64,000 nt of DNA from Candidatus Omnitrophota bacterium (lineage in GTDB: Bacteria > Omnitrophota > Gorgyraeia > Pluralincolimonadales > Pluralincolimonadaceae). Numbering within the stretch: position 1 is the stretch's first letter; every line of letters begins with the position of its first letter. The DNA is taken from the NCBI GenBank assembly GCA_041651455.1, contig JBAZJG010000005.1, forward strand, positions 3,882 to 67,881. The letters run 5' to 3'. A model generated the notes under the pieces. It made no database searches. It was given only the letters and a program-made list of their open reading frames with translations, and was not told the origin of the DNA. Positions 35,986 through 52,000 of the stretch are shown one piece after another. Position numbers and translations under genes: made by a program.

Positions 35986-38900
35986 ATGCTAAGCCAAAAT
36001 TGTAAGAAATATATTATATCATTATCCATCGCGCTCGCGATGTCGTTTCCGTCGATGTCGTGCCCCGGGGAATTAGATTACAATAAGCTTTCGCTTGAAG
36101 CCGCGCTGAACAGGATGTATGAAGTAGACCCCGAAATACAGATAAGCAGACTCGCATGCGATGCGTCCCTCCTCGAGATAAAAGCAAGGAAACTCGATAC
36201 ATTCATGCCGAAGCTCAGCGTCGGCGTCAGTATAGTCAAGCCGGTCGATATCTTCACGAAACTTGACCAGCAAAAAGAGATGTTCTTTGAACAGCAGGTT
36301 ATCATAGAATTCGCCGTGACCTCAAACAGCTTCAACCATATCCTTAAGGACAGGAAAGGGTACGAAGCTAGCATGCTCGAATTGAAGCAGGCGGTTTCCG
36401 AAAGGAGCCGTGAGCTCATCACCGTATATTACGCCGTCGCAAGGGCCCAGGAGAATTACAGGTCCAGCTGCGATAACATCGAGACAGTCGAGAAGGTCCT
36501 GAAGATGGTCGAAAACAGCAATGAATATACGGACGTCGAAAAACTCGAGATAAGGAACTATCTTGCCGTGGTCACGGAAGAGAAGTTAGGCGCGCTGAAT
36601 ACGCTCATCAATACGAGAAGAGACCTCCGCGGGCTTCTCGGTCTGGAGAACAGGGAAGATATCGATATAACCGTCGAGGAACTGCCTGATAATATCAACA
36701 ATGACATCGCCTTCTATGAAAACCCGTTGATAAGGCCGGCGGATTACACCCTCGACATATATAAGAAAAGGGGTGAGGCTGCGGACGTGGCCTCCCGGAT
36801 CAGCGCGTCTCCCTTATTGAAATTTTCTTCCGCGACGATCCTCGGCATCGCCGAGGGCAGGTTCACGAAACTCCAGAAGAAAGTGATAACTGATACGGGA
36901 GTGGAGTTGCATATAACCGACTTTGGCTATACCGGAGGCCTCAATGATGTAAGCAAGATTAATTCGCAGATAGCGAGGTTGGAGGTATTGAAAGCAGAAG
37001 AGGACCTTGAGTATTCGGATTTAATAGCGAACGGCAAACTGGCCGAACTAAGCGGCCTAATAGATAATTACAGGGAATACATAACGAAGACGGAAGACAT
37101 GTTGAGGATGTTCAGGGAACGCCTCTCCTTGCCGGTCATCGAGATAATAAGGATGAACGATAATCTCTATAAGGCCAAGTATGCGATGCAACAGGCGCTC
37201 GTCGATTATACGGTCATGCTCTCGAACCTTAAAGGTGTCGAGCTGAAACCCGAACAGACCAGCCCTCAATACCAGGATATGAGCTTGGAAGACCTGCTTG
37301 CGAGGGGCGAGAGGAGTGACATCCTGACCGTCAAACAGATATCCGAGAAGAAGATGAGGATGGAAAACGTCAGGATCAACGCGACAAAGGCCGGATATTT
37401 CCCGAAGATCACCGGTGCGGCCATACTTGAGAACGCGAACATAGACGGCGTGCCGTCGCAGGCTACGAGGGCTTACGTTGCGCTTGAAGGGCAGCTCTTT
37501 AACTTCAAGAACGGGCAGGCCATCAGGGCAGCGAAGGCCAGCATGGAAGAAATCAGGTACGAGGGCGCCGCGCTGCAGAACGTGGTCGCGGATGAGATAA
37601 TAAAGAACTACCTGTTCATATTAAGGAGCAAGAATACCTTAAAATGGCTGAACGAGATCAAGGGGATAAAAGACGACATAATACGCGATATGCTGGAAAA
37701 TATGGAAGGCAAGGGCCCCAAATATAGTAATTCGGATATACTGCCGCTGGTCCTGCAGCAGATGGAGCTGGACAGGATGATGGCGGATGCCGAGTTCTCG
37801 CTGGCGGTCGTCGAGTATAGCCTCAAGAAATGGACCGGCATACCGCTCAACGAGACGATAAGCGTAAAGGAGCTCCCGGCGTTCGGGGAGGACGAAGGGC
37901 TCTCAGGGTTCATGGCGCTGATCCGGTCCAAGGTGGCGCCGTATTTCGACGGTAAGGCGCCGGTAAAACAAGCCCTGAGCGCCGTCGAAAAGAACAGGGC
38001 GGAAGAGGCGCGGGCCGTCGCGTATGATGGGGCGCTGCTCCAGGTAAAATGCGAGACGAAGGGCATGGAATATAAGGGATGGCATGATCCCGACAGGCAG
38101 GTGTCTTTCAGCGTCTCCGTGCCGTGGGGCGACCGCAGGGAAAAGATAGCCAGGTCTGAGGCGGCGAGGACCCGCATCAAGTCGGAGATCGAGTATTTGA
38201 AGAGCATGGATGCTTATGAAAAAGAGAGGTTATCCGTCAAGACCTCCTACGATTCATCGAAAGCGCTCCTTGAAGACCTGCGCAGCAAGAAGGAGAATAT
38301 GGAATCGCAGTACAGGATAACCGAGGAACTTTACCGGTTCGGCGGCCGGACAAAGAAGCAGATGGTTGATTCCAAGCTGGATTTCATAGTAGCGCAGATG
38401 AGCTATGAGGAAGCCGTCCTTGACAACTATTACCACAATGCGAGGGAGCTGCTGGTAGTGGAGAAAGATGCGGAACCCGAAGGCAGCGAAAGGATATTGC
38501 TGGCCGGATTGCAGGAAGCGATAGACCTTGCCATGCAGAACAGCCGCGAAATAAGGAAATACGAGGAGAGCCTCAAGCTCGAGAAGGAAACATTGGATTA
38601 TTACAAGACGGTGAGGATAAAGGGCGATATCGGAGGGGATTCCTATATAATAGATAACAAGGGCTGGAATGAGACAAAGAGGGTCAAGACCGCGGGGATC
38701 GTCGCGACCGCCGACATTGACCTCGTGAACAAATATATGGTGAAAGTCCAGCAGCGCAGGATCGAGCTTGCCGAAAAGGACCTCGAGCAGGCGAAGTTCG
38801 ACCTGACCCTGAAGGTCGCGGATGCCTACTCGGGCTACCTCGGTTCGCTCGCGGAGACCTCGGAAGTCCGCAAGGAATACGAGAGGCAGAAGACGGTCCT

Positions 38901-39795
38901 GGCGGAAATGGAAGAGCTTTTCAAGGCGAAAGCGATAGCGCATGTGGACCTGCTGAAGCAGAGGGAGTTCGTAGAGAGCCTTCTGCAGAAGTACATCGAC
39001 ACCAACAGGTATACCGAAGGGCACAGGAACAGCCTCGGCATTGCCGTCGGAGGCCTCGACCCGAGGTTTTCGGTCGTGAACACCGAGGTTTACGACAAGT
39101 CCGCCCGGCGCGTCGCGCTTACGGAAGATTTCGAGATCAAGCAGAGGCTGTTGGACGAGCTTACATCCGCGAGGCAGGCGCTCCAGGGACTGCTGCAGGA
39201 TGATCTGCTCAAGCGCGCGGAGATCAAACTCGACATGGCCAGGCTTGATACCCAAGCTATATCAAAACAGGTAAAGACGCTCGCGGTCAACCTCGAGTAC
39301 ATATACCTTACGGATTTCATGGGACTAATAATGAGGGATGAAGCCGCCTTCTCGCGTTATGACAACATGTCGGAGTTTTTCTCGCTGAACTCCATAGACC
39401 AGATATTCAATCCCGCCACCGGGACTAAGGCGAGGATTGCGGCGATAAGCGAGAAGGTCGCGGCATTAAGGTCGAAGTCATATACGAAAAACGTTGTCCA
39501 GGACGCGTTGAGGAGGTTTACCGATTACCAGGTGGCCGTGGCCGATTACGCCAACTACGAGAAGAACGAAACGGTGCTGGAAAACGAGATGGCCGAGAAG
39601 ATGCGTATGGAAGAGGCGGCAGGGAACACGGCCCTGATCAGGCAGAGGGAGCTAAAAGAGACGATACTTAACAACAAGATAAAGAAGATACAGGCATTCT
39701 ACAGGATGATGAAATTTATGAACGAACTGGACCGTTATCTGATAAGATATACTTCAAAAGGCATAGAATCATACGTAACATTCGTCACAAAATGA
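35986..39795 (+). CDS. Giant TolC-family outer-membrane factor with about six OEP-type repeats (three TolC-protomer equivalents in one polypeptide)
   Basis: The 1269-aa product has an N-terminal signal-like segment (..LSIALAMSFPSMSC). TolC-style module starts occur at aa ~35 (LSLEAALNRMYEVDPEIQ), aa 432 (MSLEDLLARGERSDILTVKQ) and aa 838 (LLAGLQEAIDLAMQNSREIR). Each is followed by long heptad-rich helical hairpins and short Gly/aromatic beta segments. Confidence 0.65.
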   Translation: MLSQNCKKYIISLSIALAMSFPSMSCPGELDYNKLSLEAALNRMYEVDPEIQISRLACDASLLEIKARKLDTFMPKLSVGVSIVKPVDIFTKLDQQKEMFFEQQVIIEFAVTSNSFNHILKDRKGYEASMLELKQAVSERSRELITVYYAVARAQENYRSSCDNIETVEKVLKMVENSNEYTDVEKLEIRNYLAVVTEEKLGALNTLINTRRDLRGLLGLENREDIDITVEELPDNINNDIAFYENPLIRPADYTLDIYKKRGEAADVASRISASPLLKFSSATILGIAEGRFTKLQKKVITDTGVELHITDFGYTGGLNDVSKINSQIARLEVLKAEEDLEYSDLIANGKLAELSGLIDNYREYITKTEDMLRMFRERLSLPVIEIIRMNDNLYKAKYAMQQALVDYTVMLSNLKGVELKPEQTSPQYQDMSLEDLLARGERSDILTVKQISEKKMRMENVRINATKAGYFPKITGAAILENANIDGVPSQATRAYVALEGQLFNFKNGQAIRAAKASMEEIRYEGAALQNVVADEIIKNYLFILRSKNTLKWLNEIKGIKDDIIRDMLENMEGKGPKYSNSDILPLVLQQMELDRMMADAEFSLAVVEYSLKKWTGIPLNETISVKELPAFGEDEGLSGFMALIRSKVAPYFDGKAPVKQALSAVEKNRAEEARAVAYDGALLQVKCETKGMEYKGWHDPDRQVSFSVSVPWGDRREKIARSEAARTRIKSEIEYLKSMDAYEKERLSVKTSYDSSKALLEDLRSKKENMESQYRITEELYRFGGRTKKQMVDSKLDFIVAQMSYEEAVLDNYYHNARELLVVEKDAEPEGSERILLAGLQEAIDLAMQNSREIRKYEESLKLEKETLDYYKTVRIKGDIGGDSYIIDNKGWNETKRVKTAGIVATADIDLVNKYMVKVQQRRIELAEKDLEQAKFDLTLKVADAYSGYLGSLAETSEVRKEYERQKTVLAEMEELFKAKAIAHVDLLKQREFVESLLQKYIDTNRYTEGHRNSLGIAVGGLDPRFSVVNTEVYDKSARRVALTEDFEIKQRLLDELTSARQALQGLLQDDLLKRAEIKLDMARLDTQAISKQVKTLAVNLEYIYLTDFMGLIMRDEAAFSRYDNMSEFFSLNSIDQIFNPATGTKARIAAISEKVAALRSKSYTKNVVQDALRRFTDYQVAVADYANYEKNETVLENEMAEKMRMEEAAGNTALIRQRELKETILNNKIKKIQAFYRMMKFMNELDRYLIRYTSKGIESYVTFVTK

Positions 39796-42700
39796 GCGGG
39801 AATATGTCAAAGAGCGGCAAAAAAATAGCCATAGTGCTGGTAGCGGTCGCGGCCATCTTCATCACGGCGCGCTCGTGTATGCACCGTTCCGCGGATGTAC
39901 GGGACGCGGCCGGCACACAGCAACCGATCGCAGCCGGTGCCGCGCGTACAGATAACCCGCTCGACCATGCGCGGCAGCGCGATTCGGCTTTAAATGCCGG
40001 AGAATTGATATCCTTCATATTGGAATGGACCAACCCGGAGACCGGGCTGGTGCCTACAATCATATCAAAGAGCGGGCAAAAGAACCCTTTTGCCGACCTG
40101 TCTTATACGTACGCGCAGGCGGTTGCGCACCAGAACCTCATAATTGCGGGATCAAACGACAGGTCGCAGGCCGCCGCGGAGATATTCAGGCAGAGGGGAG
40201 AGACGAGGGATATACCTAACTGCTTCAACGTCCGGACCGGGTTTAGCGAGGACCCTTTGGTAACTGCCGGGCCAAACGCGTACTGGGGCATAAGTTTCAT
40301 AAGGGAATACAAGGCAACCGGCGACGAAAAGTGGCTTACGGCAGCAAAGAGGCGCGCAGATTTCCTGCTAAAACTGCAGACGGATGACGGCGGGATAAGA
40401 AAGAACCCCTTCCAGGGCAACGCGGAATATAAAGCCAAGTCGACAGAGGAGAACCTCGATTGCTATGCGCTGTTCGTGATGCTTTCCGATATCACAAAGG
40501 AGAATAAGTATGCGGTTGCCGCGTCCGATGTGCTCAAATGGCTTGCGGAAAGCGGTGTATATGACATAGAAGCGGGTTATTTTATCGCAGGCACATCGGA
40601 TGATCAGATGAACCCGTTGTATGCAACAGACGCGAACGCGCTCGCTATCATAATACTCGGCCCTGAGCTGCTCGATTCAGAAGGCAAGGTCCGGTTCGGC
40701 GGGGCCGGCACAAGCCGCAGGATCCTGGACAGCCTTGATGCGGCCAAGGTCAAAGTAGATTATCTCCATCCGTCCGGCGTCACGATAAAAGACCTAGAAG
40801 GATTCGATTTTACCGACAAATTCGGCAGGCCAGGCAGGAAACCAGTCCTGAGCCCCGAGTTCACTTCCCAGGCGGTGCTGGCATATCTGGTAATGGCAAG
40901 GCACGCGAAAGAGAAAGGAGATGCCGAGTATTCGGCCAAGCTGATCGAAGACGCGCGGCGTTATCTCGATAACCTAGGGAGGATGGCAGCGCGCACAGGG
41001 AAGTCGGCGTCACTGCCTTATGCCTCGGAGAAAGGGATTAGGCGTTATCCGTTCGACAACTGGCTGACGCCGCAGGGAGATGCGGATATATCGGCGACAT
41101 GGGCGTCATTCCCATTATCGGGATTCAATCCGTTCGCGCTTGAAGGGTTAGGGCTGCGTGATGCGCTGAAGGACTCCGCGGAATGGATGTCCGATACGGG
41201 TGAGGTCATAAAGCCCGAAAAAGCTTTCGTTATCCCCGAACCGGAGAAGATCATATCCGAAGCAGAGCTCATTGCCCAGCAGGAAGCGGCAAGGGAAGAG
41301 GCGATGAGGAAGCCGATCGTGTATTATAAGGTCCTTTACGACCAGGTCAATAAGGATGCGACTATTGCGAGAAGGAGAGTGATAGCCGTCCTGATGACAA
41401 GCTACAATTGCTGGTTCGACGGCGTGCTGGATACGGCGTCGCGGGACTATGACGTGATCGGCGTTGACGGGAATTATAAGGTTTTCTACAAAAGATTCCA
41501 GGACCTTCCGGAAGCGACAAGGAAAGCCGTGCAATCGGAATATGCCTATTTTGACGAGCCAACCGGCATAAAATGGAGGATGGCCCCGAAATACAATTTG
41601 TATCTAGACGGGCAGTATAAGCCGTATTATGCCTTCGAGATAGACGGCGATTACAACATAATCAGGCAGTTTGCGTCCGAGAGCGACATCCCTGAAGAGA
41701 ACAGGGCCGATCTCAAGAGCGCAAAAGCCCAATTCCAGTCCTCCCGCGGCCTTCCCGAGGGCCATCTTATAGCAAGGTATTTCACCGCGCTCGAAGTGGA
41801 CGACGAGATGAATATAACGAACTATTACGAAGCGATAGATGACCTTCCCGGCCTTGTCTCTAAAGTCCCGATAAGCGAGGATGAGTTCAGGAGGTATATA
41901 AAGGCGAAGGACTGGGAGAGGCTGGACCTGGTCTCTGCTGGCATCATACCTGATGAAAAAGGGATGCTTGCCGTACAGGAGAGAGGTATGTATTACGCAA
42001 GGGTCCTCGGCCTCGATGAGACGAGGAGGCTGCGTGTCGGTGGTGTCTCCGTAGCCAGCGGACGCGAGATAATCATGGGAACGAGGTTCAGTCTTACTAA
42101 CTGGCGCATAGGAGAGGCATCGAAAACTAACGCCGTCAAATACGAGATCGGGCTCATAAAAGGCATGGTCATAAAGCCGCGTGAACAGTTTACCGGAAGC
42201 GGCCCTTCACCGACGCAGCCGCTTTGGATATACCTCGGGGAAGATATGATCGCGTCCGAGACCGCGGAATTCAAGAGAAGGCTCATGAGCTTGTTGAAGC
42301 GCATCAAATCAGAGAAGGATGCGCAGACACGCCTCGAGCTCGTGGAACAATACGACCGGTTGGCCGGAGAGCTCGCCTGGTACGACGAGAACGGGTTCAT
42401 ACATGTTATCTATTATGGTGTAAAAGCTGCCGAAAAGAGGTTCGGGGATTTTGCGTCGGCAAAGGCAAGAGCGGAGAACAGCCTGAGGACCTACGAATCG
42501 ATCCTGGGTAAGGACCAACTCGGGCGGGACCTGCGCGATTCATACGGCCGCGTATGGCTAAAGGTCATAAACGAGGCGACCGGACGCATATTATACGTCG
42601 AGGTCTATGATATGGCGGGAAATCTCGAGACGATATATTCCGGGAAAATCGATATCGACCCGCTAACTAAGGAGGTCAGGTCCGAAATAAGGACCGATCT

Positions 42701-45700
42701 CGAGTACGACAAGGAGACCCTGCAGGTAGTCGGCAGCCACACATACCGCACGGACGAGAACGGGGATTGGGTGTCCGATATATCCGAGAGCATATTCAAA
42801 GGGTATACGCCCGACAAGAAGTATTTCGTTTCGGAGGTGCATATATTCGATAGGGACGAGGACGGCAGGATAATATTCGAGGACGGGAAAGCCAGGTATA
42901 CAAAGAAGATAGAATATTACACGCCTGAAGGCGATATATCGGCCCAGATGGTGAAGAATATAATTACTATAGTCAAGTACGGCGCCAACCATGAGGTCGT
43001 GAAAGAGGTATTTCTCGAGCGGCCCGGAAAGGTCCTGACAGGGGAGAACACGAACCTCGATAACCTGACGCAGGGCCTTGCGTGGGTCCGCAGGTACAAG
43101 ACGACAGGCAAGATCTTGACTTTCAAGGATTCGCTCGTGAAGTCCCTGACATCGCTGCCGGAAGAAGAAAGGGAAACGGCCGCGCTGCTGATATTGAACA
43201 GGCTCGGCGCGGAGAAGGTGGGCAGGATCAGCGATATCCTTATGCTGGAAGAGAACGAGGTCACGAACAACCTGACCGGCGACCCTGCCGCGGCCGGGGA
43301 GGCGCCCTATTTTGTGTTCTATGAACCGGGCGACAGTTTAGGCCGGCAAAGGCTCATAGTGCGCGGCGGTACGATGGAGGTCCCCGTTGACTGGATAGCC
43401 GAGGCCGATATACCTTCGAAGACGCTCACCTTCAACCTTGCCGGTGAATTGGTCTCGATAAGCGATGTCGACAGCTCTGTCCGCGCGGATTCCGTACTGC
43501 CTCCCGGATATATAGAAAGGATGGCGCCGCTCGGTATCAACGCCGATACGCTGCTGCCCCAGATGAAGAAGAGGATATTCAGGATGGTGACCGGCGAGGA
43601 CGGCCTGCCGCATTTCACGAATACGGTGGCCATAACGACGGTCAGCTACATGATACCCGACGACGTTCTCGGCAGGGAGCTCTTGAATGTCAAGTTTGTC
43701 ATGCTCGGGGACGAGACGACGCTCCACAGCGGCAGCGCGCTGAAGCTCAAGCGAAATATATTCGGCAGGGACACGCTTATCGAGTCGTGGAAGGACGAAA
43801 GGGGCGAGGCCCGCACCCGTGCTATAGCCAAGAAAGAGGATACCGTAGTATATGAATGGTATAAGGAAGGCCTCGGCACCGGCGAGCTGCGAGAGCGCCT
43901 GAAGTCCGAATGCGGCAAGATCGTGAAACGCAAGATACTGGAAGAGGCGCTTGAGAACGTCGCGGAGGCGCCGTTCGGCACAATGCCCGGCTATCACGTC
44001 ATAAAGCCGAACGGGCGTATAGGCGAGATCAAATATTTCTCCGGCACAGTCGAATATCCGCGCAGCGTCTTCAGTCATCCCGGGGTAAAGGTGCCTTATG
44101 AGACGGAAGCGCCGCCGTTCAAGCTTCCGGACGGTCCCCTGATAAGGGGAGTGAAATACGGCGTGTTGAATTCCGATTACGCGTTCTATGACGTGCATTC
44201 GCTCAGCGGCCAGCTGATAGTCCTCGAACGCCGTTTCATAATCCTGCGCCTCATGAACATACTGCCGGTGCAGGGCGGCAGGCAGACTGAATATTATGAC
44301 CCGCTCGTCCCGTATTCATACCTGAGGCCGATAAAGATAGAAAGGGATTTCAGGCCCGGCACACAACCCGAGGGCACGCAGCCGGGCACCCAGATCGTTG
44401 CGGTCTTTATCGGCGATGCGAGCATCTACCACCGTAACGGATGGCAGACCCAGACTTTCCTCGAGAGGAGGCCGTTCGATATAGAGCACTGGATACGCTC
44501 TGATTACGAGTTCGACGATAACGGCGTATATAAGTTCAAGAAAGAGCATATCGAAAGCAGTTCGATATACCTGATGAGGTCTATAAAATGGCAGAAGCCG
44601 CTAGCTTTCTTCGCGTTTGTGGCAGGCCTCTTCTTCCTGGCCGGGTATGTCTCGCGCAGCAGGCTTAAGGCAGGTAAGAGGTCCAGGATGGCTGTCGCGC
44701 GTGCGGCATCGCGGCCGTTCAGCAGGGAAGTGCTTGCGCGGCTCTCGGTACCTGAAGAGCTGAAAGCCGCCTGTATAAGGGTTTATGAAGGACATGAGCC
44801 GGTATCGGAACTCTTCGCCGCATCCGAAAAGGTCTTCAGGCCCAGGATCGAGGAATGCCTTCGCGGTTTCGGGGCCGACCCTGCCGGACATACGGCAAGC
44901 GTAAATGTCCTGCTGGACAGGATCGCGTGCCGGATCGGAAGGGAGGATATAAATTTAAGCAACCTGTTCGCAGTTGAAGCGAAAGAGTTCGGGGAATGGT
45001 CTAAGAAGAACGGGCATTCCGTCAACATTGCCGCAGGCAGGCCCGGCAGGGACGACCTGTCGGTGATAGTCCTCTTCAGGCTGGTATTCGACGAATCGAT
45101 GGAATTCAGGGCCGCCGTCACCGGGTTCAGGAATTACCTGCTCGATAAGTCGCTCGGGCTCCTTGACGAAGGCAGGAAAGGCGATATATTGCGCGAGATA
45201 CGCGGCGATACTCTCGCTTTCCTCGAGGCCTTAAGGCCTGGTTATGACAGGAAGCTCGGGCTCACTAAGGAATATATATTCACGTATGATGACATGAGCG
45301 AGCTCTTTGAAGGAAAGAGGCCAGGTTTCATCGCCTCATTCTCCCAGCTGGCAGGAAAGACCGCCGAGCAAAAACTCTCCTGGCTCGCGTCAAGGGCGGG
45401 CAAGGATGCCGCCGCGGACGTGAAGTCATACAAGAGCTACATATGGCTCAAGACGTTCCCTGATAAGGCCGGCGTTCCGCAGTTCGTCTGGAACCTTAGG
45501 CGCTTCTGGGAATTTCTCGTGCCGATGTTCGCGGCAGTGACTCTGGGCGGCGTAGCGATAGCCCTGAAACGGATACCGTTCGCCCAACGCCTCTCCGGTG
45601 CGATGGGCCCGATAGGAGCCACCTTTGTCGAGGTAACGGCCCTGATATTTATCGGCCTCATCATAACTATGGCCTTCAAGAGGCGGACACTCGGCGATTA

Positions 45701-48700
45701 CAGGCCCGCGCTGAGGGATGCGGCCGGGAGCAAGGAGCTCAGGCGCTCGATCAGGCTGTTCTGGATAATGTTCGGCTCGGCTTCTTATCTCTGGGGCCTC
45801 TTCAGCATATTCGTGATAATCTGGACCGTCAGGATCATAAGCAAACTCACGTTCGTGAGCGCCGGATGGGGCCTGTTCATCAACGTGAGCGCGCTGCTGC
45901 TCACCTTCACGTTCATACTGTCGAGCTTCTTCTCGCTCTTTTATATCATAATAGCGTTGATAGGGTTTTACCGCGGCAAGAGGGAAGGCATCGGCCAGGT
46001 CATATCATGGGCCCAGATGAGGAGGAAGTTCGAGGCATCCAGGCGGTGCTTCGGGCAGATCATCACTCCGTCCGAAGCGTTTTGGAAATCATATTGGAAT
46101 TCCATGATAACGGAACTCTACGATTATTATGTCATCAGTGCCGCGGAGAGGGATGGGCTGGTTTATTCGGAAAAGAACGCGGTGCCGAAGCTATCCTCAC
46201 AGCCGCGTGCCGAAGAGGCCTCCGAAAGGATGCGCCTGTACGTAAACAGCTGGCTTATGGAGATGCCGAAGGCATGCTCCTGGAACGACCTGCCGACCTT
46301 CACGGCAATGGTAACGGCTTTCAATGAGCCGGTAAGCTTCTCGTTCGACGAGCTGAACGGCTGCGACAGGGGGGCCGAGGTCACGAGGCTTAACCACCTG
46401 ATCGGGTTCTATAGGCCGCAGTGGGAAGAATTTGTCGGCAGGCTAAATTCCGCCGACCTCGGGCATTATATCACGAGGGAACAGCTAAAGCTGCTCTTCG
46501 GCCTGAAGAAGCTGCCCGAAGGGCTCCCTGAACAACTGAAGGAAAAGATCAGGAAGTGGGCAAACCTGACGGTCCAGTGCGTCGAGAAGACGGCCGTGGA
46601 GGTATACAGGATACGCGACGCTTTCGCGGCATACGCACGGGCCTGCTATCCCGGAATCTCCGAGAAGGCGGTATCGGAGATGGTCTCTGATAAGGTCCAG
46701 ATACTGCTGAATTACGAGGGCTACCACAGCGCCGCGACCCGCGATTCCGACAAGGAGGCCCTGAGGAGGATCATGAAGGAGCTCCCGTTCCTTGACGTAT
46801 ACTGGGCGGCGCCGGAAGGCGACGAGAAGGGAACGGACCGCGGGCTCCACCGCTATAACCCGTCGACAGACAGCATAGAGCTTATAGAGACCGCGCCGTT
46901 CACCTCCACGGTCAAGAAAGGCAAGCCGAGCGGGCTGAACCAGGCGCTGCCGTTCGTGAAGGGCGAGACGGTCCTTTTCTTCGACGCGAACTGCTCGGTC
47001 AGGATAGAGGACGCCCTGAAACTGCCCGTCGCGCTTTCCGAGTTCGCGGACGACCCGTCGCTCGGCGAAGTCCTGTTCGCGGAATACATATTCAACAAGA
47101 ACTACTCCTGGATCTCCCAGGCGATAGGTTTCAACGAGGAGACCTTCGTTTCGGTGACCCAGAGGACGCTTAACATCTTCCAGGCCTGCGGTTTCTACGG
47201 CCACAGCGCGATAATAAAGACAGACATGATAACCGCGGCCTGCGGCCTGCCGCAGGATTACATATCGGAGGACATACTCCTTGCCACGGCATTATGGAAA
47301 AAGGGCCTGAGGACCTCGCACAAAGAATACCTGACCTTCGGGAAGGGCAGGGAGACCTCGTATTTCACGAGCCTCGTGCCGCTGACGAAGTGGGCGATGG
47401 GTTCTTCCGACGCCGCGATAGGCCGCGTCATGCGCGGCATACTCGATTCGAGGAATGTCCATGTCGCGCAGAAGTTCATGCTGATGTTCGGGTTCTCGTT
47501 CTTCTACCAGACCCCGCTGATGTTCGTGATAAACTTCCTTTACCTGTGGCTGATGATCTGCTGGGGCATAAACGGTTTCATGGCGGTCCCGTACCCGATA
47601 GTCTTCGGTATCCTCGGCCTGCTCTTCAACCAGGCGATAACCGCTACCGGCGTCGCGTACCTCGTGGAACATTACGGTTTCAGGAAGTCCTTCTCCGCAT
47701 ACATGAAGCTTGTCGCGAAGAACCATTTCTTTTACGCGTCGGTCATACCCGCGTACGCGTTCGGTTTCCTCGCAGGCCTGAAGGGAAAGGCAGTCTTTAT
47801 CATAAGCCCGAAGGGATGGAACCTGGGCCACCTGCCCCTCAAGACGATATGGGGGGAGAAGAGGGCCATACTGAAGGCGGCGCTCTTCAGCACCATGGTA
47901 GGCCTTCCGCTCGCATACCTGTTCGTGTCGACCGAGACGGTCCCGTTATGGATAAGCCCGTTCATACCGTTCCTGCCGTTCGCCGTAGTTGCGGCTATGT
48001 ACTTGGCCGGCCTCAGGTGGAAAGAGACGGGATTGGGTTTCCTGAAGGATTGGCGCGACGAGATAGTCCCCGACGGCGACATCCGCAAGATGTCCGTCAT
48101 AAAGCTGCAGATGATATACGCGATGGTCTTGCTTGTCTTCACGGGAGTCGGCTTCGTCATGTGGGGCCTTATATTCTCATCCCTGGCGGTCAAGGCGCTG
48201 TTCATATTCTCGGTCCTTTACATAAGCACGACGCTGTCGTTCATAATAATGCCGCTCTTTGCGCATTCGCAGCCGGTCGCGCTGTTCAAGGAGATAACGA
48301 TATCCAAGTTCTGGAATTACGCGGTGATACCGATGCTGCTGGCGAGCATTGTTCTCGGCGCGGTCTCTATAATGTCGAGCCCCGCGACGGCATCGCCCGA
48401 ATCCGTCGTCTATACGCTTCTCGGCATATCGATGCTTGTCGGATGGGCGCTGCTTAAGTGGAAGCTCAGCGGGTATGCGAGGCTTGACAGGTGGCTCAGG
48501 CAGAACCTGGCCGGATACGCATCCTCTTCGCCGGTACGCAAAGCCGACCTCATGGATGACATATACTTCGCTCACCAGGAGTTGATCCAGAGCGACAGGC
48601 AGGAGGAGCTTAAATACAGCAGGAAGGCCGGGAAGGCCAAAGCCGTGTTCGTGTTCACGCTGTCGGCCGCGTTGCTGATGTATTTCACGTCGGAATTCTA

Positions 48701-49019
48701 CCCGAGGTTCTTCAGCAACTGGATATGGATCGTTATCGCGATCGAGGCGGTCTACCTGCTGATATTGAACGTCGAGCATACTAAGGGCGACAGGATATAC
48801 CTGGGCAAGTTATTCAGCGAAATAATGATTAATGATTTCAACAGGCTCAATGAGAATGTCAGGGCCATGGAAGACATCTGGAAGAAACTGGACAGGATAT
48901 ACAAGGCCAAGCTTATCAGGACCTATGAGGACGAAGTCAGGGCCAAGAGGGCGATGACCGTTTACATGTCCAGGTGCATAAGGTCGTGGGAGGCGGGACA
49001 GCAGCAGAAGCCTACTTAG
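39792..49019 (+). CDS. 3075-aa envelope-spanning protein. Order: N-terminal TM anchor, ~1570-aa periplasmic region (alpha/alpha-toroid-like plus beta-rich), TM, cytoplasmic linker, TM cluster, FKS1/callose-synthase-like (GT48-like) glucan synthase core, ~10-TM C-terminal cluster
   Basis: ATGA overlap with the TolC-like gene, then one uninterrupted ORF. The GT48-type blocks are EEASERMRLYVNSW..MP..LPTFTAMV, YRPQWEEFV, IRKWANLTVQ, GKPSGLNQALPFVKGETVLFFDAN, EDALKLPVALSEF, AEYIF, FYGHSA, SEDILLA and EYLTFGKGRE. Hydrophobic clusters lie at 45.5-46.0 kb and 47.5-48.8 kb. Confidence 0.75.
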   Translation: MSGNMSKSGKKIAIVLVAVAAIFITARSCMHRSADVRDAAGTQQPIAAGAARTDNPLDHARQRDSALNAGELISFILEWTNPETGLVPTIISKSGQKNPFADLSYTYAQAVAHQNLIIAGSNDRSQAAAEIFRQRGETRDIPNCFNVRTGFSEDPLVTAGPNAYWGISFIREYKATGDEKWLTAAKRRADFLLKLQTDDGGIRKNPFQGNAEYKAKSTEENLDCYALFVMLSDITKENKYAVAASDVLKWLAESGVYDIEAGYFIAGTSDDQMNPLYATDANALAIIILGPELLDSEGKVRFGGAGTSRRILDSLDAAKVKVDYLHPSGVTIKDLEGFDFTDKFGRPGRKPVLSPEFTSQAVLAYLVMARHAKEKGDAEYSAKLIEDARRYLDNLGRMAARTGKSASLPYASEKGIRRYPFDNWLTPQGDADISATWASFPLSGFNPFALEGLGLRDALKDSAEWMSDTGEVIKPEKAFVIPEPEKIISEAELIAQQEAAREEAMRKPIVYYKVLYDQVNKDATIARRRVIAVLMTSYNCWFDGVLDTASRDYDVIGVDGNYKVFYKRFQDLPEATRKAVQSEYAYFDEPTGIKWRMAPKYNLYLDGQYKPYYAFEIDGDYNIIRQFASESDIPEENRADLKSAKAQFQSSRGLPEGHLIARYFTALEVDDEMNITNYYEAIDDLPGLVSKVPISEDEFRRYIKAKDWERLDLVSAGIIPDEKGMLAVQERGMYYARVLGLDETRRLRVGGVSVASGREIIMGTRFSLTNWRIGEASKTNAVKYEIGLIKGMVIKPREQFTGSGPSPTQPLWIYLGEDMIASETAEFKRRLMSLLKRIKSEKDAQTRLELVEQYDRLAGELAWYDENGFIHVIYYGVKAAEKRFGDFASAKARAENSLRTYESILGKDQLGRDLRDSYGRVWLKVINEATGRILYVEVYDMAGNLETIYSGKIDIDPLTKEVRSEIRTDLEYDKETLQVVGSHTYRTDENGDWVSDISESIFKGYTPDKKYFVSEVHIFDRDEDGRIIFEDGKARYTKKIEYYTPEGDISAQMVKNIITIVKYGANHEVVKEVFLERPGKVLTGENTNLDNLTQGLAWVRRYKTTGKILTFKDSLVKSLTSLPEEERETAALLILNRLGAEKVGRISDILMLEENEVTNNLTGDPAAAGEAPYFVFYEPGDSLGRQRLIVRGGTMEVPVDWIAEADIPSKTLTFNLAGELVSISDVDSSVRADSVLPPGYIERMAPLGINADTLLPQMKKRIFRMVTGEDGLPHFTNTVAITTVSYMIPDDVLGRELLNVKFVMLGDETTLHSGSALKLKRNIFGRDTLIESWKDERGEARTRAIAKKEDTVVYEWYKEGLGTGELRERLKSECGKIVKRKILEEALENVAEAPFGTMPGYHVIKPNGRIGEIKYFSGTVEYPRSVFSHPGVKVPYETEAPPFKLPDGPLIRGVKYGVLNSDYAFYDVHSLSGQLIVLERRFIILRLMNILPVQGGRQTEYYDPLVPYSYLRPIKIERDFRPGTQPEGTQPGTQIVAVFIGDASIYHRNGWQTQTFLERRPFDIEHWIRSDYEFDDNGVYKFKKEHIESSSIYLMRSIKWQKPLAFFAFVAGLFFLAGYVSRSRLKAGKRSRMAVARAASRPFSREVLARLSVPEELKAACIRVYEGHEPVSELFAASEKVFRPRIEECLRGFGADPAGHTASVNVLLDRIACRIGREDINLSNLFAVEAKEFGEWSKKNGHSVNIAAGRPGRDDLSVIVLFRLVFDESMEFRAAVTGFRNYLLDKSLGLLDEGRKGDILREIRGDTLAFLEALRPGYDRKLGLTKEYIFTYDDMSELFEGKRPGFIASFSQLAGKTAEQKLSWLASRAGKDAAADVKSYKSYIWLKTFPDKAGVPQFVWNLRRFWEFLVPMFAAVTLGGVAIALKRIPFAQRLSGAMGPIGATFVEVTALIFIGLIITMAFKRRTLGDYRPALRDAAGSKELRRSIRLFWIMFGSASYLWGLFSIFVIIWTVRIISKLTFVSAGWGLFINVSALLLTFTFILSSFFSLFYIIIALIGFYRGKREGIGQVISWAQMRRKFEASRRCFGQIITPSEAFWKSYWNSMITELYDYYVISAAERDGLVYSEKNAVPKLSSQPRAEEASERMRLYVNSWLMEMPKACSWNDLPTFTAMVTAFNEPVSFSFDELNGCDRGAEVTRLNHLIGFYRPQWEEFVGRLNSADLGHYITREQLKLLFGLKKLPEGLPEQLKEKIRKWANLTVQCVEKTAVEVYRIRDAFAAYARACYPGISEKAVSEMVSDKVQILLNYEGYHSAATRDSDKEALRRIMKELPFLDVYWAAPEGDEKGTDRGLHRYNPSTDSIELIETAPFTSTVKKGKPSGLNQALPFVKGETVLFFDANCSVRIEDALKLPVALSEFADDPSLGEVLFAEYIFNKNYSWISQAIGFNEETFVSVTQRTLNIFQACGFYGHSAIIKTDMITAACGLPQDYISEDILLATALWKKGLRTSHKEYLTFGKGRETSYFTSLVPLTKWAMGSSDAAIGRVMRGILDSRNVHVAQKFMLMFGFSFFYQTPLMFVINFLYLWLMICWGINGFMAVPYPIVFGILGLLFNQAITATGVAYLVEHYGFRKSFSAYMKLVAKNHFFYASVIPAYAFGFLAGLKGKAVFIISPKGWNLGHLPLKTIWGEKRAILKAALFSTMVGLPLAYLFVSTETVPLWISPFIPFLPFAVVAAMYLAGLRWKETGLGFLKDWRDEIVPDGDIRKMSVIKLQMIYAMVLLVFTGVGFVMWGLIFSSLAVKALFIFSVLYISTTLSFIIMPLFAHSQPVALFKEITISKFWNYAVIPMLLASIVLGAVSIMSSPATASPESVVYTLLGISMLVGWALLKWKLSGYARLDRWLRQNLAGYASSSPVRKADLMDDIYFAHQELIQSDRQEELKYSRKAGKAKAVFVFTLSAALLMYFTSEFYPRFFSNWIWIVIAIEAVYLLILNVEHTKGDRIYLGKLFSEIMINDFNRLNENVRAMEDIWKKLDRIYKAKLIRTYEDEVRAKRAMTVYMSRCIRSWEAGQQQKPT

Positions 49020-50391
49020 TATTGTAGCTTTCTTTCAAAACCTCGTGGTAGTAGAGCCAATCGTCGCTAACCTTCTTCATCGCGCTGTAGAGGTTCCTGT
49101 AATCGTCGTAGATATCGCATTCGAACTCGATATTACGCCTTCCGCTCAGGAAATGCGCGAAGAGCTTGTAGTTCATCTCCTTGCGCAGGAAGTTCTTCTT
49201 CTTGAGGGCATAGAAGAGCGATCCGCTGCCTTCGAAGCAGTTCATTATCCTTACCCATTCGCAGGCGATGAATATGCAGTTCTTGTAGCTTCCGAACAGG
49301 TCGACCGTGTCGCAGTCGATGAATACGCATGATTCGAGCTTGCTCGACGGTTTTATCTTCTTGCTCCTGACGAAATAGTTGCCGTTCTCGTCCGGTTTGG
49401 ATATCTGCGCGGTCAGCTTGCGCAGCAATTCGAGATATGTCATTATGTTTGACGCCCAGTCGATCCAGTAGCCCCTGGCGATGGCGCCGCCGACGCTTAT
49501 CTCGTATTGCTGAAGGCATTCCCTCATTGCGAGCTGTATCTTCGATAGCGCCTTCTTCTCCAGGACGAGCGACTCGCAGACCAGCTTGTTGAAGCTCCAT
49601 TCGGTCGCGTTCAGGTGCGCGATGAAGTCCTTGTTCTTCTCCTTGGAGCAGAAGAGGTCGACCGCGTTCTGCAGCTTATCCAGGCTGTCTTTTGTGGTGA
49701 ATAGCTGGAACGTATTCGCGAGCGTCATACCCTTTGTATATTTAGGTATCAATTTTTCGTCGAAGGTCTTTTCGTAAAAAGAGGATATGCCGTTATTAGA
49801 GTCGAGCTTAGCCGTGCCGAGGCTCCCGAGGGCCCTGTTTATCTGTATCGGGGTCAGCAGCATGGAAGCCGTATGCGAGTTAAGCGATCTCAGCAGGCCG
49901 TTTATGTCCACATCGGCGTAATCGAAACACTGGTCGATCGGAAGTATGATAACCGTGTTCTTCAAAAGCGGGATGCTCTTGGCGATGCACGGAAGAAGCA
50001 TGTCCGGCGCCCGGCCTTCGGGGAACCTTATGCTCGCCTTTGACGGCGTGCCGAATTCATAAGAGAGGGGGAATATCCTCGTGGCGAGGCCGGCGTCATG
50101 GATATATACAATAGTATCGAAGGAATCAAGCTTCTTCTTGGAAAGGAGCCTCTTTATACGCTCGTGGGTCTTGAGGTAACCGGTAAGGTTACCGCGGGTC
50201 TGGCCCATCTCGGCCATCCCGACAAGCTCGACGTCTATCGTCTTGTTATACCGCTCCCTGAGCTTCTTCTTGAAGAGCTGTTTGAGGTCGAGAGAGAACT
50301 CAAGCTTATCATAAGAGTTCAGTACGAGCAGTACCCTGTCCGCGACCTCATTTTTTACTTTTAGGTTCTCCAGTACGGTAGTCTTAGCCAT
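49012..50391 (-). CDS. Hypothetical cytoplasmic protein; weak motif-level resemblance to nucleotide-sugar pyrophosphorylase-type folds
   Basis: The 459-aa ORF has clean coding character, is Lys/Asn/Phe-rich and has no TM segment. The motif VYIHDAGLATRIFPLSYEFGTPSKASIRFP loosely recalls the G-x-x-(S/T)-R-x-x-P-(L)-(S/T)...K loop of NDP-sugar pyrophosphorylases and fucokinase-N-type domains. Its 3' end overlaps the giant gene by 8 bp. Confidence 0.6.
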   Translation of the reverse strand: MAKTTVLENLKVKNEVADRVLLVLNSYDKLEFSLDLKQLFKKKLRERYNKTIDVELVGMAEMGQTRGNLTGYLKTHERIKRLLSKKKLDSFDTIVYIHDAGLATRIFPLSYEFGTPSKASIRFPEGRAPDMLLPCIAKSIPLLKNTVIILPIDQCFDYADVDINGLLRSLNSHTASMLLTPIQINRALGSLGTAKLDSNNGISSFYEKTFDEKLIPKYTKGMTLANTFQLFTTKDSLDKLQNAVDLFCSKEKNKDFIAHLNATEWSFNKLVCESLVLEKKALSKIQLAMRECLQQYEISVGGAIARGYWIDWASNIMTYLELLRKLTAQISKPDENGNYFVRSKKIKPSSKLESCVFIDCDTVDLFGSYKNCIFIACEWVRIMNCFEGSGSLFYALKKKNFLRKEMNYKLFAHFLSGRRNIEFECDIYDDYRNLYSAMKKVSDDWLYYHEVLKESYNTK

Positions 50392-50398
50392 TTACGAA

Positions 50399-50427
50399 AA
50401 TATACCCTTTTTTATTAAAAAAGTCAA
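50399..50427 (-). promoter_or_regulatory. Promoter of the 459-aa gene; predicts a leaderless mRNA
   Basis: On the minus strand: TTGACT (50427-50422), a 17-nt spacer, then TATATT (50404-50399). Only 7 nt (TTCGTAA) separate it from ATG (50391-50389), and there is no SD. Confidence 0.55.
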
Positions 50428-50442
50428 GCATTTTGGCCTGCC

Positions 50443-50471
50443 TTGACATTTCTAACCCTATGTGGTATACT
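50443..50471 (+). promoter_or_regulatory. Sigma70-type promoter of cvpA
   Basis: TTGACA (50443-50448), a 17-nt spacer, then TATACT (50466-50471). Confidence 0.6.
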
Positions 50472-50491
50472 TGCTTCCAAATATCAGGAGA

Positions 50492-51028
50492 ATGATCTTG
50501 CCGGAAGCGGTCCAGCGTATAAATTGGGTTGATGTCTTAACCGTAATCCTTTTGCTAAGAACATGTTATATCGGCGCCAGGACCGGCCTATCGGAAGAGG
50601 TCTTCAGGATGATAGGCGTCATTTTCGCCCTGTATATTTCAATGAGTTTTTACTCTCCGCTCGGGAGCAGGATCAATGCGAGTTTTTCCCTGCCTCAGGA
50701 ACTTGTCGACGGGGTTTCTTTTTTAATTCTAATTTTACTGTCTATGTTAAGTCTTAAGTTAGTCGCCCTCGGCGTGACGAAGGTGGTCAAGCTCGCGTTC
50801 GCCGACAAGATAAACCAGTGGGGCGGGTTCATATCGGGATTGCTGAGGGGCGCTTTACTCCTCAGCCTGCTCTTCACGCTGTTCGGGATATTGCAGGTGG
50901 ATTACCTCGTGAAGTCGGTCGAAGAACGTTCCCTGACCGGCCCGTATATAAGCAAGATCGCGCCGTACGCATACCAGGTTGTCGTAAGGAACTCCCCCGA
51001 AGCAATAAAAATAGAAGAACAAAAATAA
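50492..51028 (+). CDS. cvpA: CvpA family (colicin V production) membrane protein
   Basis: ..INWVDVLTVILLLRTCYIGARTGLSEEVFRMIGVIFALYISMSFY.. with 4 TM segments. The ORF-track start at 50462 lies inside the promoter. The likely start is ATG 50492, or the in-frame TTG 50498, which is better spaced from AGGAG at 50486-50490. Confidence 0.75.
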   Translation: MILPEAVQRINWVDVLTVILLLRTCYIGARTGLSEEVFRMIGVIFALYISMSFYSPLGSRINASFSLPQELVDGVSFLILILLSMLSLKLVALGVTKVVKLAFADKINQWGGFISGLLRGALLLSLLFTLFGILQVDYLVKSVEERSLTGPYISKIAPYAYQVVVRNSPEAIKIEEQK

Positions 51029-51040
51029 CAGGAGGATGAG

Positions 51041-52000
51041 TTGAAATTATCGAAGATCTATGATCTCGTGGTAAGGGAAGGTATTGCCGCCGACCCGCGC
51101 GGAAAAGATGCGGTCGCGAAAGTCCTCTCGAAAGCCGGTAGGGATTACGAGGCGCTGAAGGAGAAGGATAAGCAGTATTTCGACAAGGAGAGGCTGCGGA
51201 ACCCTTACGCGGACACGAGGATACTTTACGGCAGCGGCTCTACGGAGGTCAAGCGTATAATCGTAGGCGTCGATATGGAAGTGGGCGAGGTCGTCCTGGC
51301 CGACAGGCTCAGGGAGAAAGGGATGAAGATAGACCTCATACTGGCCCACCACCCGGAAGGCCGCGCATGGGCGAATTTTTATGAGGTGATGAATATGCAG
51401 CCGGACATATGGGCGAAGTTCGGCGTACCGATAAATGTCGCGGAAGGGATAATGAAGGACAGGGTAAAAGAGGTCGAGCGCAGGGTCATGCCGGCCAACC
51501 ATACGCGCACGGTCGACGCCGCGAGATTGCTCGACATCCCCATGATGTGCGCGCATACGGTGGCGGACAACCATGTCGTCTCGTATTTGCAGAAGCTCAT
51601 GGACTCGAAAGCGCCGGACACGGTTGCCGAGGTCATAGACATACTGAAAGAGATACCCGAATACCAGCAAGCGATGAAGGTCAACGCCGGGCCGCGCGTA
51701 TTTTTCGGGGATCCGAAGAACAGGGCGGGCAAGGTCTTCGTGGACATGACCGGAGGCACCGAAGGCCCGACCAACATGTTCGAGAAGCTCGAAGACGCCG
51801 GGGTCGGCACGATCGTCGCGATGCACCTCGGAGAGGACCACCTGAAGAACGCGCAGAAAGGCCACCTGAACGTGGTCATCGCAGGGCACATATCGAGCGA
51901 TAACCTCGGCCTGAACCTGCTCTTCGACAAGCTCGCGAAAGAGGAAAAGCTTGAGTTCATCGGTTGTTCGGGCTTCGAAAGGGTAAGCCGCGGCAAATAA
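51041..52000 (+). CDS. Nif3-like dinuclear metal center protein
   Basis: The HHP motif (LILAHHPEG), MCAHTVADN and the C-terminal VIAGHISSD metal ligands are present. The start is TTG after AGGAGGA. Confidence 0.8.
   Translation: MKLSKIYDLVVREGIAADPRGKDAVAKVLSKAGRDYEALKEKDKQYFDKERLRNPYADTRILYGSGSTEVKRIIVGVDMEVGEVVLADRLREKGMKIDLILAHHPEGRAWANFYEVMNMQPDIWAKFGVPINVAEGIMKDRVKEVERRVMPANHTRTVDAARLLDIPMMCAHTVADNHVVSYLQKLMDSKAPDTVAEVIDILKEIPEYQQAMKVNAGPRVFFGDPKNRAGKVFVDMTGGTEGPTNMFEKLEDAGVGTIVAMHLGEDHLKNAQKGHLNVVIAGHISSDNLGLNLLFDKLAKEEKLEFIGCSGFERVSRGK

Follow-up and report, generated by a model that had tools for sequence, protein, structure and literature searches.

A divergent nucleotidyltransferase-fold protein encoded beside a GT48-like synthase in an Omnitrophota genome, with a likely leaderless start

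Introduction

The stretch analysed here (the window, 64,000 nucleotides of a Candidatus Omnitrophota contig) contains a gene, here called NTL, that runs tail to tail into a very large membrane protein gene and carries the label "hypothetical protein" in every source. The locus raises three questions: what kind of protein NTL encodes, whether that protein serves the neighbouring synthase, and how expression of the gene begins.

The following features of the window bear on the first two questions:

49012–50391, minus strand: NTL coding sequence, a soluble protein of 459 aa with a divergent nucleotidyltransferase fold (from the ORF, 22 homologues, an AF2 model and fold matches)
39792–49019, plus strand: 3075-aa membrane protein with a GT48 (1,3-beta-glucan synthase) domain (PF02364, E 2.4e-24) and an N-terminal GH76-like domain (PF03663, E 1.5e-9)
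35986–39795, plus strand: 1269-aa outer-membrane efflux protein (OEP/TolC-like; PF02321, E 8.8e-23)
32877–34454, plus strand: dCache-HAMP-GGDEF diguanylate cyclase, part of the conserved gene set
34436–35668, plus strand: MORN-repeat protein, part of the conserved gene set
49012–49019, no strand assigned: tail-to-tail overlap of stop codons, 8 bp (CTACTTAG), read from the sequence

Results and discussion

A sequence-only reading of this DNA had proposed a 459-aa ORF without transmembrane segments. The ORF is present at 49012–50391 on the minus strand with an ATG start, and no TM-like segments were found in its product. The codon at −1 is an in-frame TAA and the next in-frame ATG, GTG or TTG is codon 59; because a start there would remove a conserved strand-helix unit, the ATG is the sole possible start. 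The gene is real. It encodes a protein of the sugar-1-phosphate nucleotidyltransferase superfamily, one that has diverged very far and carries no annotation.

The homologues share 35–95% identity. The AF2 model (pLDDT 89.6, pTM 0.88) has a Rossmann-like alpha/beta nucleotidyltransferase fold that matches sugar-nucleotide pyrophosphorylases – FKP-NTD, GlgC, GMPPB and CugP. The best Foldseek matches, all full-length, were GlgC (E 6e-10, probability 1.0), VTC1 and CugP, and eIF2B subunits and GMPPA/B complexes are also among the structural neighbours. Pfam gave no match for the window protein itself at E <= 10, while PF00483 matches 11 of 20 family members (best E 2.2e-8) and is carried by the nearest outside relatives among 1.84 billion representatives. 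The loose resemblance to nucleotidyltransferases noticed earlier is thus borne out by the fold, by PF00483 in the homologues and by two aligned active-site residues, D153 and K208. The earlier suggestion of Fucokinase-N agrees with the best structural match, FKP-NTD.

Two narrower assignments were rejected. Against the glgC model TIGR02091 the window protein has a partial match of 13.5 bits (E 0.028), far under the cutoff of 424.9 bits, so it is not a GlgC equivalog. Nor did the Pfam profile of the FKP/GFPP family, PF07959 (Fucokinase), give a match.

Parts of the protein are encoded as follows:

50116–50391, minus strand: N-terminal beta-alpha-beta-alpha unit, residues 1–92, before the nucleotide-binding loop
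50038–50100, minus strand: putative nucleotide-binding loop H98-D-A-G-L-A-T-R-I-F-P-L-S-Y-E-F-G-T-P-S-K118 (compare GxGTRxxPLT...PK)
49933–49935, minus strand: codon of D153 (motif ILPIDQ), an invariant Asp that HMM alignments pair with catalytic D142 of E. coli GlgC
49768–49770, minus strand: codon of K208 (motif FYEK), an invariant Lys that HMM alignments pair with K195 of E. coli GlgC, which binds the sugar phosphate
49114–49377, minus strand: C-terminal beta-helix domain, residues 339–426, with stacked invariant C355/C372 and C360/C377

The loop comes after strand 93–98 in the model, and ten of its residues (H98, D99, A100, G101, R105, F107, P108, L109, Y111 and K118) are invariant in 20 NTL sequences. 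D153 and K208 correspond to the catalytic or metal-binding Asp that follows the fourth strand and to the sugar-phosphate Lys of the EKP motif in the superfamily, and the motif GYWxDW (D311) is invariant across the family. The Cys-periodic C-terminal part, which had been taken as a hint of a beta-helix, is predicted by the model to be one – a coiled parallel beta-helix with a period of ~18 residues, as in left-handed beta-helices of the hexapeptide-repeat type.

The loop also departs from the canonical pattern. Two glycines of GGxGTR are alanines in NTL (A100 and A103), and in sequence profiles the G-loop of NTL did not align with that of GlgC; no tool paired it residue for residue with the loop of a known enzyme. 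GlgC has ~50 more residues between the loop and the catalytic Asp, so NTL lacks the usual base-recognition motif at the expected position.

The data here and below establish the ORF, the fold, the conserved motifs, the synteny and the promoter geometry with its conservation. From them we infer catalysis, substrate, supply role and transcription start of NTL, and the interpretation that we favour, with moderate confidence, is a dedicated NDP-hexose pyrophosphorylase that supplies a GT48-like polysaccharide system and has leaderless or near-leaderless expression in its clade. The protein would consist of an FKP-NTD/GlgC-type Rossmann-like catalytic domain and a C-terminal left-handed beta-helix, the latter for oligomerisation and possibly allosteric control. 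The HDAGLATR...K118 loop would grip the NTP, with Mg2+ held by D153 and D311, and a hexose-1-phosphate whose phosphate is bound by K208 would attack the alpha-phosphate to give NDP-hexose and pyrophosphate.

The altered loop, together with the great distance of the family from active families, could instead point to a non-catalytic subunit, one that binds a nucleotide or sugar nucleotide, senses a metabolite or second messenger and tunes the GT48-like synthase as a regulator or scaffold. There are precedents with the same fold (GMPPA, eIF2B gamma/epsilon and the large subunits of plant AGPase), and the structural neighbours noted above include eIF2B and GMPPA/B complexes. NTL is tightly linked to a GGDEF cyclase, and the window proteins that were scanned include no PilZ receptor. 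In FKP-NTD an additional nucleotide site next to the beta-helix may have an allosteric role (PMC11982464). Such a subunit is nevertheless a rather unlikely reading of NTL. The loop Arg and Lys, the catalytic Asp, the EK Lys and the GYWxDW Asp are invariant across 35–95% identity, which is the pattern expected of an active site, and phosphoglucomutase and sugar-nucleotide dehydrogenase neighbours fit a precursor pathway. The first loop Ala is tolerable, since GalU-type enzymes also use A-G-L-G-T-R.

Gene neighbourhood

The NTL family is rare (16 loci in 185,579 species genomes). Its usual neighbours are a GT48-like giant synthase together with genes for an OEP channel, a GGDEF cyclase and a MORN protein. 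In the window the giant protein has ~15 TM-like segments flanking its GT domain, and the stop of the OEP gene overlaps the start of the giant gene; OEP homologues also adjoin the giant gene at loci L001, L033 and L035. The suspected link to the synthase stands: GT48-like genes adjoin NTL genes in three gene orders and in at least six separate lineage groups (68–95% identity in the window clade, ~50% in five others). The giant is adjacent to NTL in the window clade, in Auribacterota (L023), UBP3 (L024) and STD1_172 (L029), and at L012. At L012 a phosphoglucomutase adjoins the NTL homologue and a GGDEF/MORN pair lies between it and the giant gene, and at L014 a MORN protein precedes the NTL homologue.

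The linkage is not universal. The NTL homologue at L013 has as neighbours a UDP-glucose/GDP-mannose dehydrogenase, a GT2 synthase, an MFP, an OEP and an alginate lyase, with no GT48; at L004, among P0021-type homologues, it adjoins an unrelated giant protein of 2809 aa; and at L001 it shares an operon with genes for a GT2 synthase and an HlyD-like protein. At L034 the GT48 giant is followed by HlyD and an ABC transporter, with no NTL homologue within 4.5 kb. The first three loci would suit an active NTL whose sugar nucleotide, for example a GDP-hexose, serves a GT2-type synthase or the decoration of another glycan, its adjacency to GT48 reflecting general clustering of envelope genes. This seems improbable, as the GT48-like giant is the commonest and closest neighbour across phyla, with three gene orders seen, and even at L001 it is within 6 kb.

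As a dedicated pyrophosphorylase, NTL would feed its product to the adjacent machine, made up of the GT48-like synthase, the OEP outer-membrane channel, the GGDEF cyclase and the MORN protein. The candidate donors are UDP-glucose, by analogy with eukaryotic GT48, and GDP-hexose as an alternative. A closer association can be imagined, though it is speculative: NTL may be a dedicated cytosolic partner docked on the synthase, rather than a free metabolic enzyme, and there it would channel NDP-hexose or sense a nucleotide (c-di-GMP, GTP or an NDP-sugar).

Convergent overlap with the giant gene

The two genes share 8 bp, as had been noted, between the TAG at 49017–49019 on the plus strand and the TAG at 49014–49012 on the minus strand. 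The identical overlap is found in the P0002 contigs and at L010 and L011; L007–9 have a 4-nt gap between the stops instead. Neither a terminator-like site nor a stable hairpin is present at the junction (z = +1.0 and +1.9). The NTL transcript would run head-on into that of the giant gene.

Promoter and start of transcription

Three features lie at the upstream end of NTL:

50399–50427, minus strand: sigma-70-type NTL promoter, with −35 TTGACT at 50427–50422, a 17-nt spacer and −10 TATATT at 50404–50399
50391–50392, minus strand: predicted NTL transcription start, at the first base of the ATG or the A that precedes it, for a leader of 0–1 nt, judged from the −10-to-+1 distance
50443–50471, plus strand: divergent cvpA promoter TTGACA-17-TATACT, its −10 preceded by TG, placed back to back with that of NTL

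The near-consensus promoter described earlier matches 10 of 12 consensus positions, and its TATATT ends 7 nt (TTCGTAA) before the ATG at 50391. Sites matching at least 10 of 12 positions are 3-fold enriched in the whole window (15, against 4.5 ± 2.3 in first-order Markov simulations) and mostly intergenic; by arithmetic from the simulation, the chance that one would end 5–9 nt before any of ~40 start codons is of the order of 0.01. The Shine-Dalgarno (SD) core (GGAG, GAGG or AGGA) is absent from −17 to −4 of the ATG, again as claimed, and the sole G-rich run upstream is AAGGG, ~13 nt before the ATG and within the promoter spacer. The further statement that most other genes have clear GGAG-type ribosome-binding sites is about half true and was overstated: by a crude count, 18 of 40 long ORFs in the window have such a core before a plausible start (background 17%), and many operon-internal genes, the giant gene included, have none. 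What is distinctive at NTL is a promoter abutting the ATG, rather than the absent SD.

Nine distinct upstream sequences from the clade share this geometry. All of them have TTGACT and a 17-nt spacer, the −10 box (TATATT, TATGAT, TATCAT or TATTAT) lies 7–12 nt before the start codon, and the start codon is ATG in all nine. Distant homologues have ordinary GGAG-type ribosome-binding sites (GAAGGAG/AGGAGG) instead of an abutting promoter. The distance from the −10 hexamer to +1 is usually 6–7 nt. Because of the conserved clade spacing and the contrast with the distant homologues, a leaderless or near-leaderless NTL mRNA is likely; in the clade, transcription from the gene's own sigma-70-type promoter would start at the AUG or 1–2 nt before it.

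Consensus matches do not prove promoter function, and the mRNA could begin farther upstream or arise by readthrough, with AAGGG as a weak, long-spaced SD and TTGACT/TATATT not a working promoter. AAAAAGG(G) is kept in all clade members. At L014 and L012 the similar sites AAGGGG or AGGAGG stand ahead of TATAATA and the ATG, so that the motif upstream of NTL could be a displaced SD remnant. A conventional leader of this kind is doubtful. L011 and L033 retain TTGACT, a spacer of exactly 17 nt and the T-A-T...T of the −10 hexamer within intergenic DNA that has otherwise diverged. The NTL and cvpA promoters share an intergenic space of only ~100 nt; that of cvpA is followed by AGGAG and then by ATG/TTG at 50492/50498. 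A spacing of 13–14 nt between a 4-base SD and the ATG is poor, and every clade member starts with ATG, which leaderless translation requires.

Significance

A testable function is now proposed for the NTL family, and a conserved five-gene set – cyclase, MORN protein, OEP, synthase and NTL – is defined around a bacterial GT48-like synthase. GT48 has been studied almost only in fungi and plants, and the surveyed literature mentioning PF02364 concerns eukaryotes. Naming the sugar nucleotide made by NTL would be the quickest route to the polymer exported by these uncultured Omnitrophota and Auribacterota. NTL and the GT48-like cluster are not a new kind of system; if the docked arrangement were true, DGC-MORN-OEP-GT48-NTL would be a new type of synthase-dependent beta-glucan secretion with a built-in substrate gate. 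The proposed leaderless layout adds modestly to this: in this clade specifically, a promoter-abutted start takes the place of an SD-led one.

Comparison with known systems

Leaderless mRNAs are common in Actinobacteria and Deinococcus and occasional elsewhere. They share with NTL a −10 box 7–8 nt before the ATG, the absence of an SD and an obligatory AUG; the clade differs in that the leader of L033 is predicted to be ~5–6 nt.

The N-terminal domain of Bacteroides fragilis FKP (PDB 9iis/9iit), a GDP-fucose pyrophosphorylase, and the related GFPP enzymes have only 10% identity to NTL, and residue equivalences between FKP and NTL are putative. NTL is a stand-alone protein of 459 aa with no fused kinase, and its genes lie in a glucan-synthase-like export cluster, not in a fucose-salvage context. 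GlgC (E. coli 5l6s, A. tumefaciens 5w5r) lacks the extra N-terminal unit of NTL and has a longer segment between G-loop and Asp; NTL is outside any glycogen operon. GDP-mannose pyrophosphorylases (human GMPPB/GMPPA, Arabidopsis VTC1, T. maritima) and the cyanobacterial CugP-type UDP-glucose pyrophosphorylase (tlr0611, 8x7s) are 11–16% identical to NTL, and their family models gave no match to the window protein.

Outside the family, the closest relatives by sequence (E about 1e-5) are P0026–P0036, unnamed proteins of 570–810 aa with a PF00483 core. Their alignment with the NTL family (hhalign probability 97%, E 3e-11, 113 columns) spans ILPxD, GxxGxxKL, EKP and NTFQ. They are far longer than NTL, their loop has the canonical sequence AGGFGSR, and their N-terminal region of ~300 aa is unrelated.

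The gene and its convergent neighbour

The convergent gene of the sequence-only reading is present as an ORF of 459 codons with an ATG start (49012–50391, minus strand). The codon directly 5' of the ATG is an in-frame TAA, and the next in-frame ATG, GTG or TTG is codon 59; a start there would strip the protein of one conserved strand and one helix, which leaves no ambiguity about the start codon. The gene closes the following block in the window:

32877–34454, dCache-HAMP-GGDEF cyclase
34436–35668, MORN-repeat protein
35986–39795, OEP/TolC-like protein of 1269 aa, with its stop codon overlapping the start of the gene that follows (ATGA)
39792–49019, plus strand, giant gene: membrane protein of 3075 aa with a GH76-like N-terminal domain, two TM clusters and a PF02364 GT48 glucan-synthase domain
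49012–50391, minus strand, the 459-aa gene

The stop codons of the last two genes overlap by 8 bp (CTACTTAG, 49012–49019), and the junction has no terminator-like site, both as the sequence-only reading had it. Neither strand folds better here than shuffled sequence, and no unusually stable structure was found. It is reasonable to expect that each of the converging transcripts would extend into the coding region of the other gene. The contigs encoding the homologue P0002 and the loci L010 and L011 share the 8-bp overlap; L007–L009 have a 4-nt gap in its place, and L023 a gap of about 19 nt. Thus tight tail-to-tail packing is conserved, but not the precise overlap, and there is no sign that the overlap is a specific regulatory element.

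G+C is about 0.52 across the gene and its neighbours (48001–52000), compared to 0.55–0.59 in a large part of the window. AT skew is negative in 48–50 kb only, as expected where a block of plus-strand genes contains a single long gene on the minus strand. An Rfam scan of 48.5–51.2 kb found nothing, its single match (E 0.99) being far under the gathering score.

A conserved promoter-like site next to the start codon

The promoter-like site proposed for the minus strand was found as described: TTGACT (50427–50422), a 17-nt spacer and TATATT (50404–50399), after which come TTCGTAA and, at 50391, the ATG. The window contains three times as many promoter matches of 10/12 or better as expected (15, versus 4.5 ± 2.3). 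Since most of them are intergenic and precede genes, the consensus is predictive in the source organism, where an RpoD-type sigma factor is encoded as well.

The upstream DNA of every relative in the window clade (68–95% protein identity), drawn from Omnitrophota MAGs and from metagenomes, comes in nine distinct versions. All nine have an invariant TTGACT, a 17-nt spacer and an ATG start. Six have TATATT as the −10 box, and three have TATGAT, TATCAT or TATTAT. The box lies 7–8 nt from the ATG in all but one, where the distance is 12 nt, and the bases between are freely variable. At two loci, L011 and L033, the promoter elements are kept even where the remaining intergenic DNA has diverged beyond alignment. 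Distant homologues (ca. 35–52% identity; loci L001, L004, L012 and L014) have GAAGGAG, AGGAGG or AAGGGG 6–9 nt before the ATG, which indicates that a start led by a Shine-Dalgarno (SD) sequence was exchanged for a promoter-abutted one in the window clade.

The usual spacing of the −10 hexamer to +1 is 6–7 nt, so the predicted transcript start is at the A of the AUG or 1–2 nt before it; at L033 it would be about 5–6 nt before. The mRNA is thus probably leaderless or nearly so, judging from this layout. The main alternative is a longer transcript on which a conserved AAGGG about 13 nt upstream of the ATG acts as a long-spaced SD, a reading that we consider unlikely. A missing SD by itself was rejected as the mark of an unusual gene. 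The claim that most other genes in the window have GGAG-type ribosome binding sites was too strong: by a crude test, a GGAG, GAGG or AGGA core precedes a plausible start in 18 of the 40 long ORFs (background 17%), and the remaining 22 lack one, so the absence of an SD is not exceptional here. A literature search on leaderless mRNAs in Omnitrophota returned nothing relevant.

The recG gene (20580–22688, 702 aa) is a candidate for a second mRNA with a short leader or none: within 20541–20582, TTGACA-17-TATTAT ends 10 nt before its ATG with no SD, and an extended −10, TGTATAAT, overlaps the ATG itself. Back to back with the promoter of the 459-aa gene is a divergent cvpA promoter (within 50443–50498; TTGACA-17-TATACT with an upstream TG, 11/12). 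It covers GTG 50462, the start of the longest cvpA ORF, so the true start is probably ATG 50492 or TTG 50498; AGGAG at 50486–50490 lies upstream of both. Gene callers also differ on the length of cvpA in L007 and L008 (176 or 188 aa).

A rare family with a nucleotidyltransferase fold

The single 459-aa sequence matched no Pfam family and nothing useful among PDB sequences. The best PDB sequence matches were HIV gp41 constructs, which are spurious and drawn by a W-rich GGxxxxGxWxDWxxxIxxY stretch. This stretch (GGAIARGYWIDWASNIMTYLELLRKL, residues 295–335, 49387–49509) repeatedly gives weak matches to gp41 six-helix-bundle constructs, and these should be disregarded in automated annotation.

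The family is very small: a set of 5.8 billion proteins yielded 22 clusters, a set of 1.84 billion yielded five representative clusters with E < 1e-10, and 185,579 species genomes yielded 16 loci, in MAGs of Omnitrophota, Auribacterota, UBP3 and Polyangiales. Every member is named 'hypothetical protein' at source. An AlphaFold2 model from a 20-sequence alignment is confident (pLDDT 89.6, pTM 0.88), and no hydrophobic segment qualifies as transmembrane, in agreement with the sequence-only reading. In the PDB, Foldseek matches the model best to full-length ADP-glucose pyrophosphorylases (probability 1.0, E 6e-10), to the GDP-mannose pyrophosphorylase VTC1 and to a CugP-type UDP-glucose pyrophosphorylase. 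TM-scores to these are low (0.3–0.4), which may reflect a differing orientation of the two domains. PF00483 matches 11 of 20 family members (best E 2.2e-8), and the next-nearest proteins in the 1.84-billion library also bear PF00483 and align with the family at an hhalign probability of 97%. These nearest sequence relatives (P0026–P0036) are uncharacterised proteins of 570–810 aa with a canonical AGGFGSR loop and a PF00483 core, preceded by an N-terminal region of ca. 300 aa of unassigned nature.

HMM alignments to E. coli ADP-glucose pyrophosphorylase (GlgC) place the family-invariant D153 (ILPIDQ) on D142 (ILAGDH) and the family-invariant K208 (FYEK) on K195 (FVEKP), the catalytic Asp and the glucose-1-phosphate lysine of GlgC. 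The suspected resemblance to sugar-nucleotide pyrophosphorylases is borne out by the fold matches, PF00483 and these two residues, and the nucleotidyltransferase fold is nearly certain. The loop H98-DAGLATRIFPLS...K118 follows the first core strand; its Arg, Pro-Leu and Lys do not vary within the family, nor does GYWxDW (D311). A trimmed catalytic-core profile of the family, built to align the G-loop with GlgC, aligned over just the central Asp-to-Lys segment. The model has short strands across residues 339–426, where a beta-helix had been suspected, and invariant cysteines 17 residues apart (C355/C372 and C360/C377) fit an internal cysteine ladder.

Linkage to GT48-like synthases

The cyclase, MORN, OEP and GT48-giant components recur in L012, L001, L033 and L035. 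A giant gene and a homologue of the 459-aa gene are convergent and abutting throughout the window clade, and also at about 52% identity in Auribacterota L023, UBP3 L024 and STD1_172 L029. In L012 the order is co-directional giant-GGDEF-MORN-homologue, plus a convergent phosphoglucomutase; in L001–L003 the homologue is in a GT2-HlyD-248aa-gene operon 6 kb from the OEP-giant pair. A reverse search from the GT48 domain recovered the homologue in the three close loci.

Linkage to the GT48-like gene thus recurs in different gene orders; the exceptions are L013, L034 and the loci of the most divergent (P0021-type) homologues. Directly upstream of the latter is a 2809-aa protein (L004 1416–9845; also L005, L006 and L026) with an N-terminal signal-like segment and no Pfam domain; it was rejected as a relative of the GT48 giant, with no similarity by BLASTP, phmmer --max or Pfam. 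In the Polyangiales-like L013 (4709–12716), the homologue is beside a GT2 synthase, a membrane-fusion-like protein, an OEP, an alginate lyase and a UDP-glucose/GDP-mannose dehydrogenase, with no GT48; from its gene content, this is a putative alginate-like or other uronic-acid polymer locus. L034 (90–12695) has a GT48-like giant (2779-aa ORF, GT domain 65% identical), then an HlyD-type membrane-fusion protein and a fused ABC transporter, with no homologue of the 459-aa gene within 4.5 kb, which suggests an alternative export arrangement. What unites these loci appears to be synthase-dependent polysaccharide export, with the GT48-like kind the most frequent.

Literature searches on bacterial GT48/PF02364 proteins and Omnitrophota glucan synthases returned nothing relevant, and of 20 papers that mention PF02364, the 15 listed were all on eukaryotes. 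The GT48-like export cluster, on which no literature was found, is of more interest than the 459-aa gene alone.

Proposed function and comparison with known enzymes

The 459-aa protein is probably a dedicated NDP-hexose pyrophosphorylase. The A100–R105/K118 loop would bind the NTP, D153 and D311 Mg2+, and K208 the hexose-1-phosphate; the beta-helix would have a part in oligomerisation or allosteric control, as it does in GlgC, GMPPB and FKP (a Bacteroides fragilis protein with an N-terminal GDP-fucose pyrophosphorylase domain), and the NDP-hexose product would feed the neighbouring synthase. The chief alternative is a non-catalytic regulatory subunit, for which the nucleotidyltransferase fold has precedents; that all catalytic-site residues are invariant in the family speaks against it, and on balance we favour an active enzyme. 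That it supplies the adjacent synthase is an evenly balanced prediction. Eukaryotic GT48 enzymes use UDP-glucose; the best structural neighbours of the 459-aa protein are GDP-sugar enzymes, and the context in L013 hints at GDP-mannose chemistry.

An N-terminal beta-alpha-beta-alpha unit (residues ca. 15–92) precedes the nucleotide loop. The FKP base-binding residues Ser6, Asp31 and Gly38 likewise precede its His73/Gly75/Gly76 loop (PMC11982464), and the two pre-loop elements are putatively equivalent. This shared layout is the probable reason that more residues align with FKP than with GlgC. The protein is outside GlgC proper, as its match to the glgC model is partial, at just 13.5 bits, and below the equivalog cutoff, and outside the Pfam Fucokinase family, which it does not match. 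Within the wider NTP_transferase superfamily, the 459-aa protein and its homologues form a family of their own, rare and so far without annotation, and the protein probably works in the manner of an FKP-NTD/GlgC-type pyrophosphorylase.
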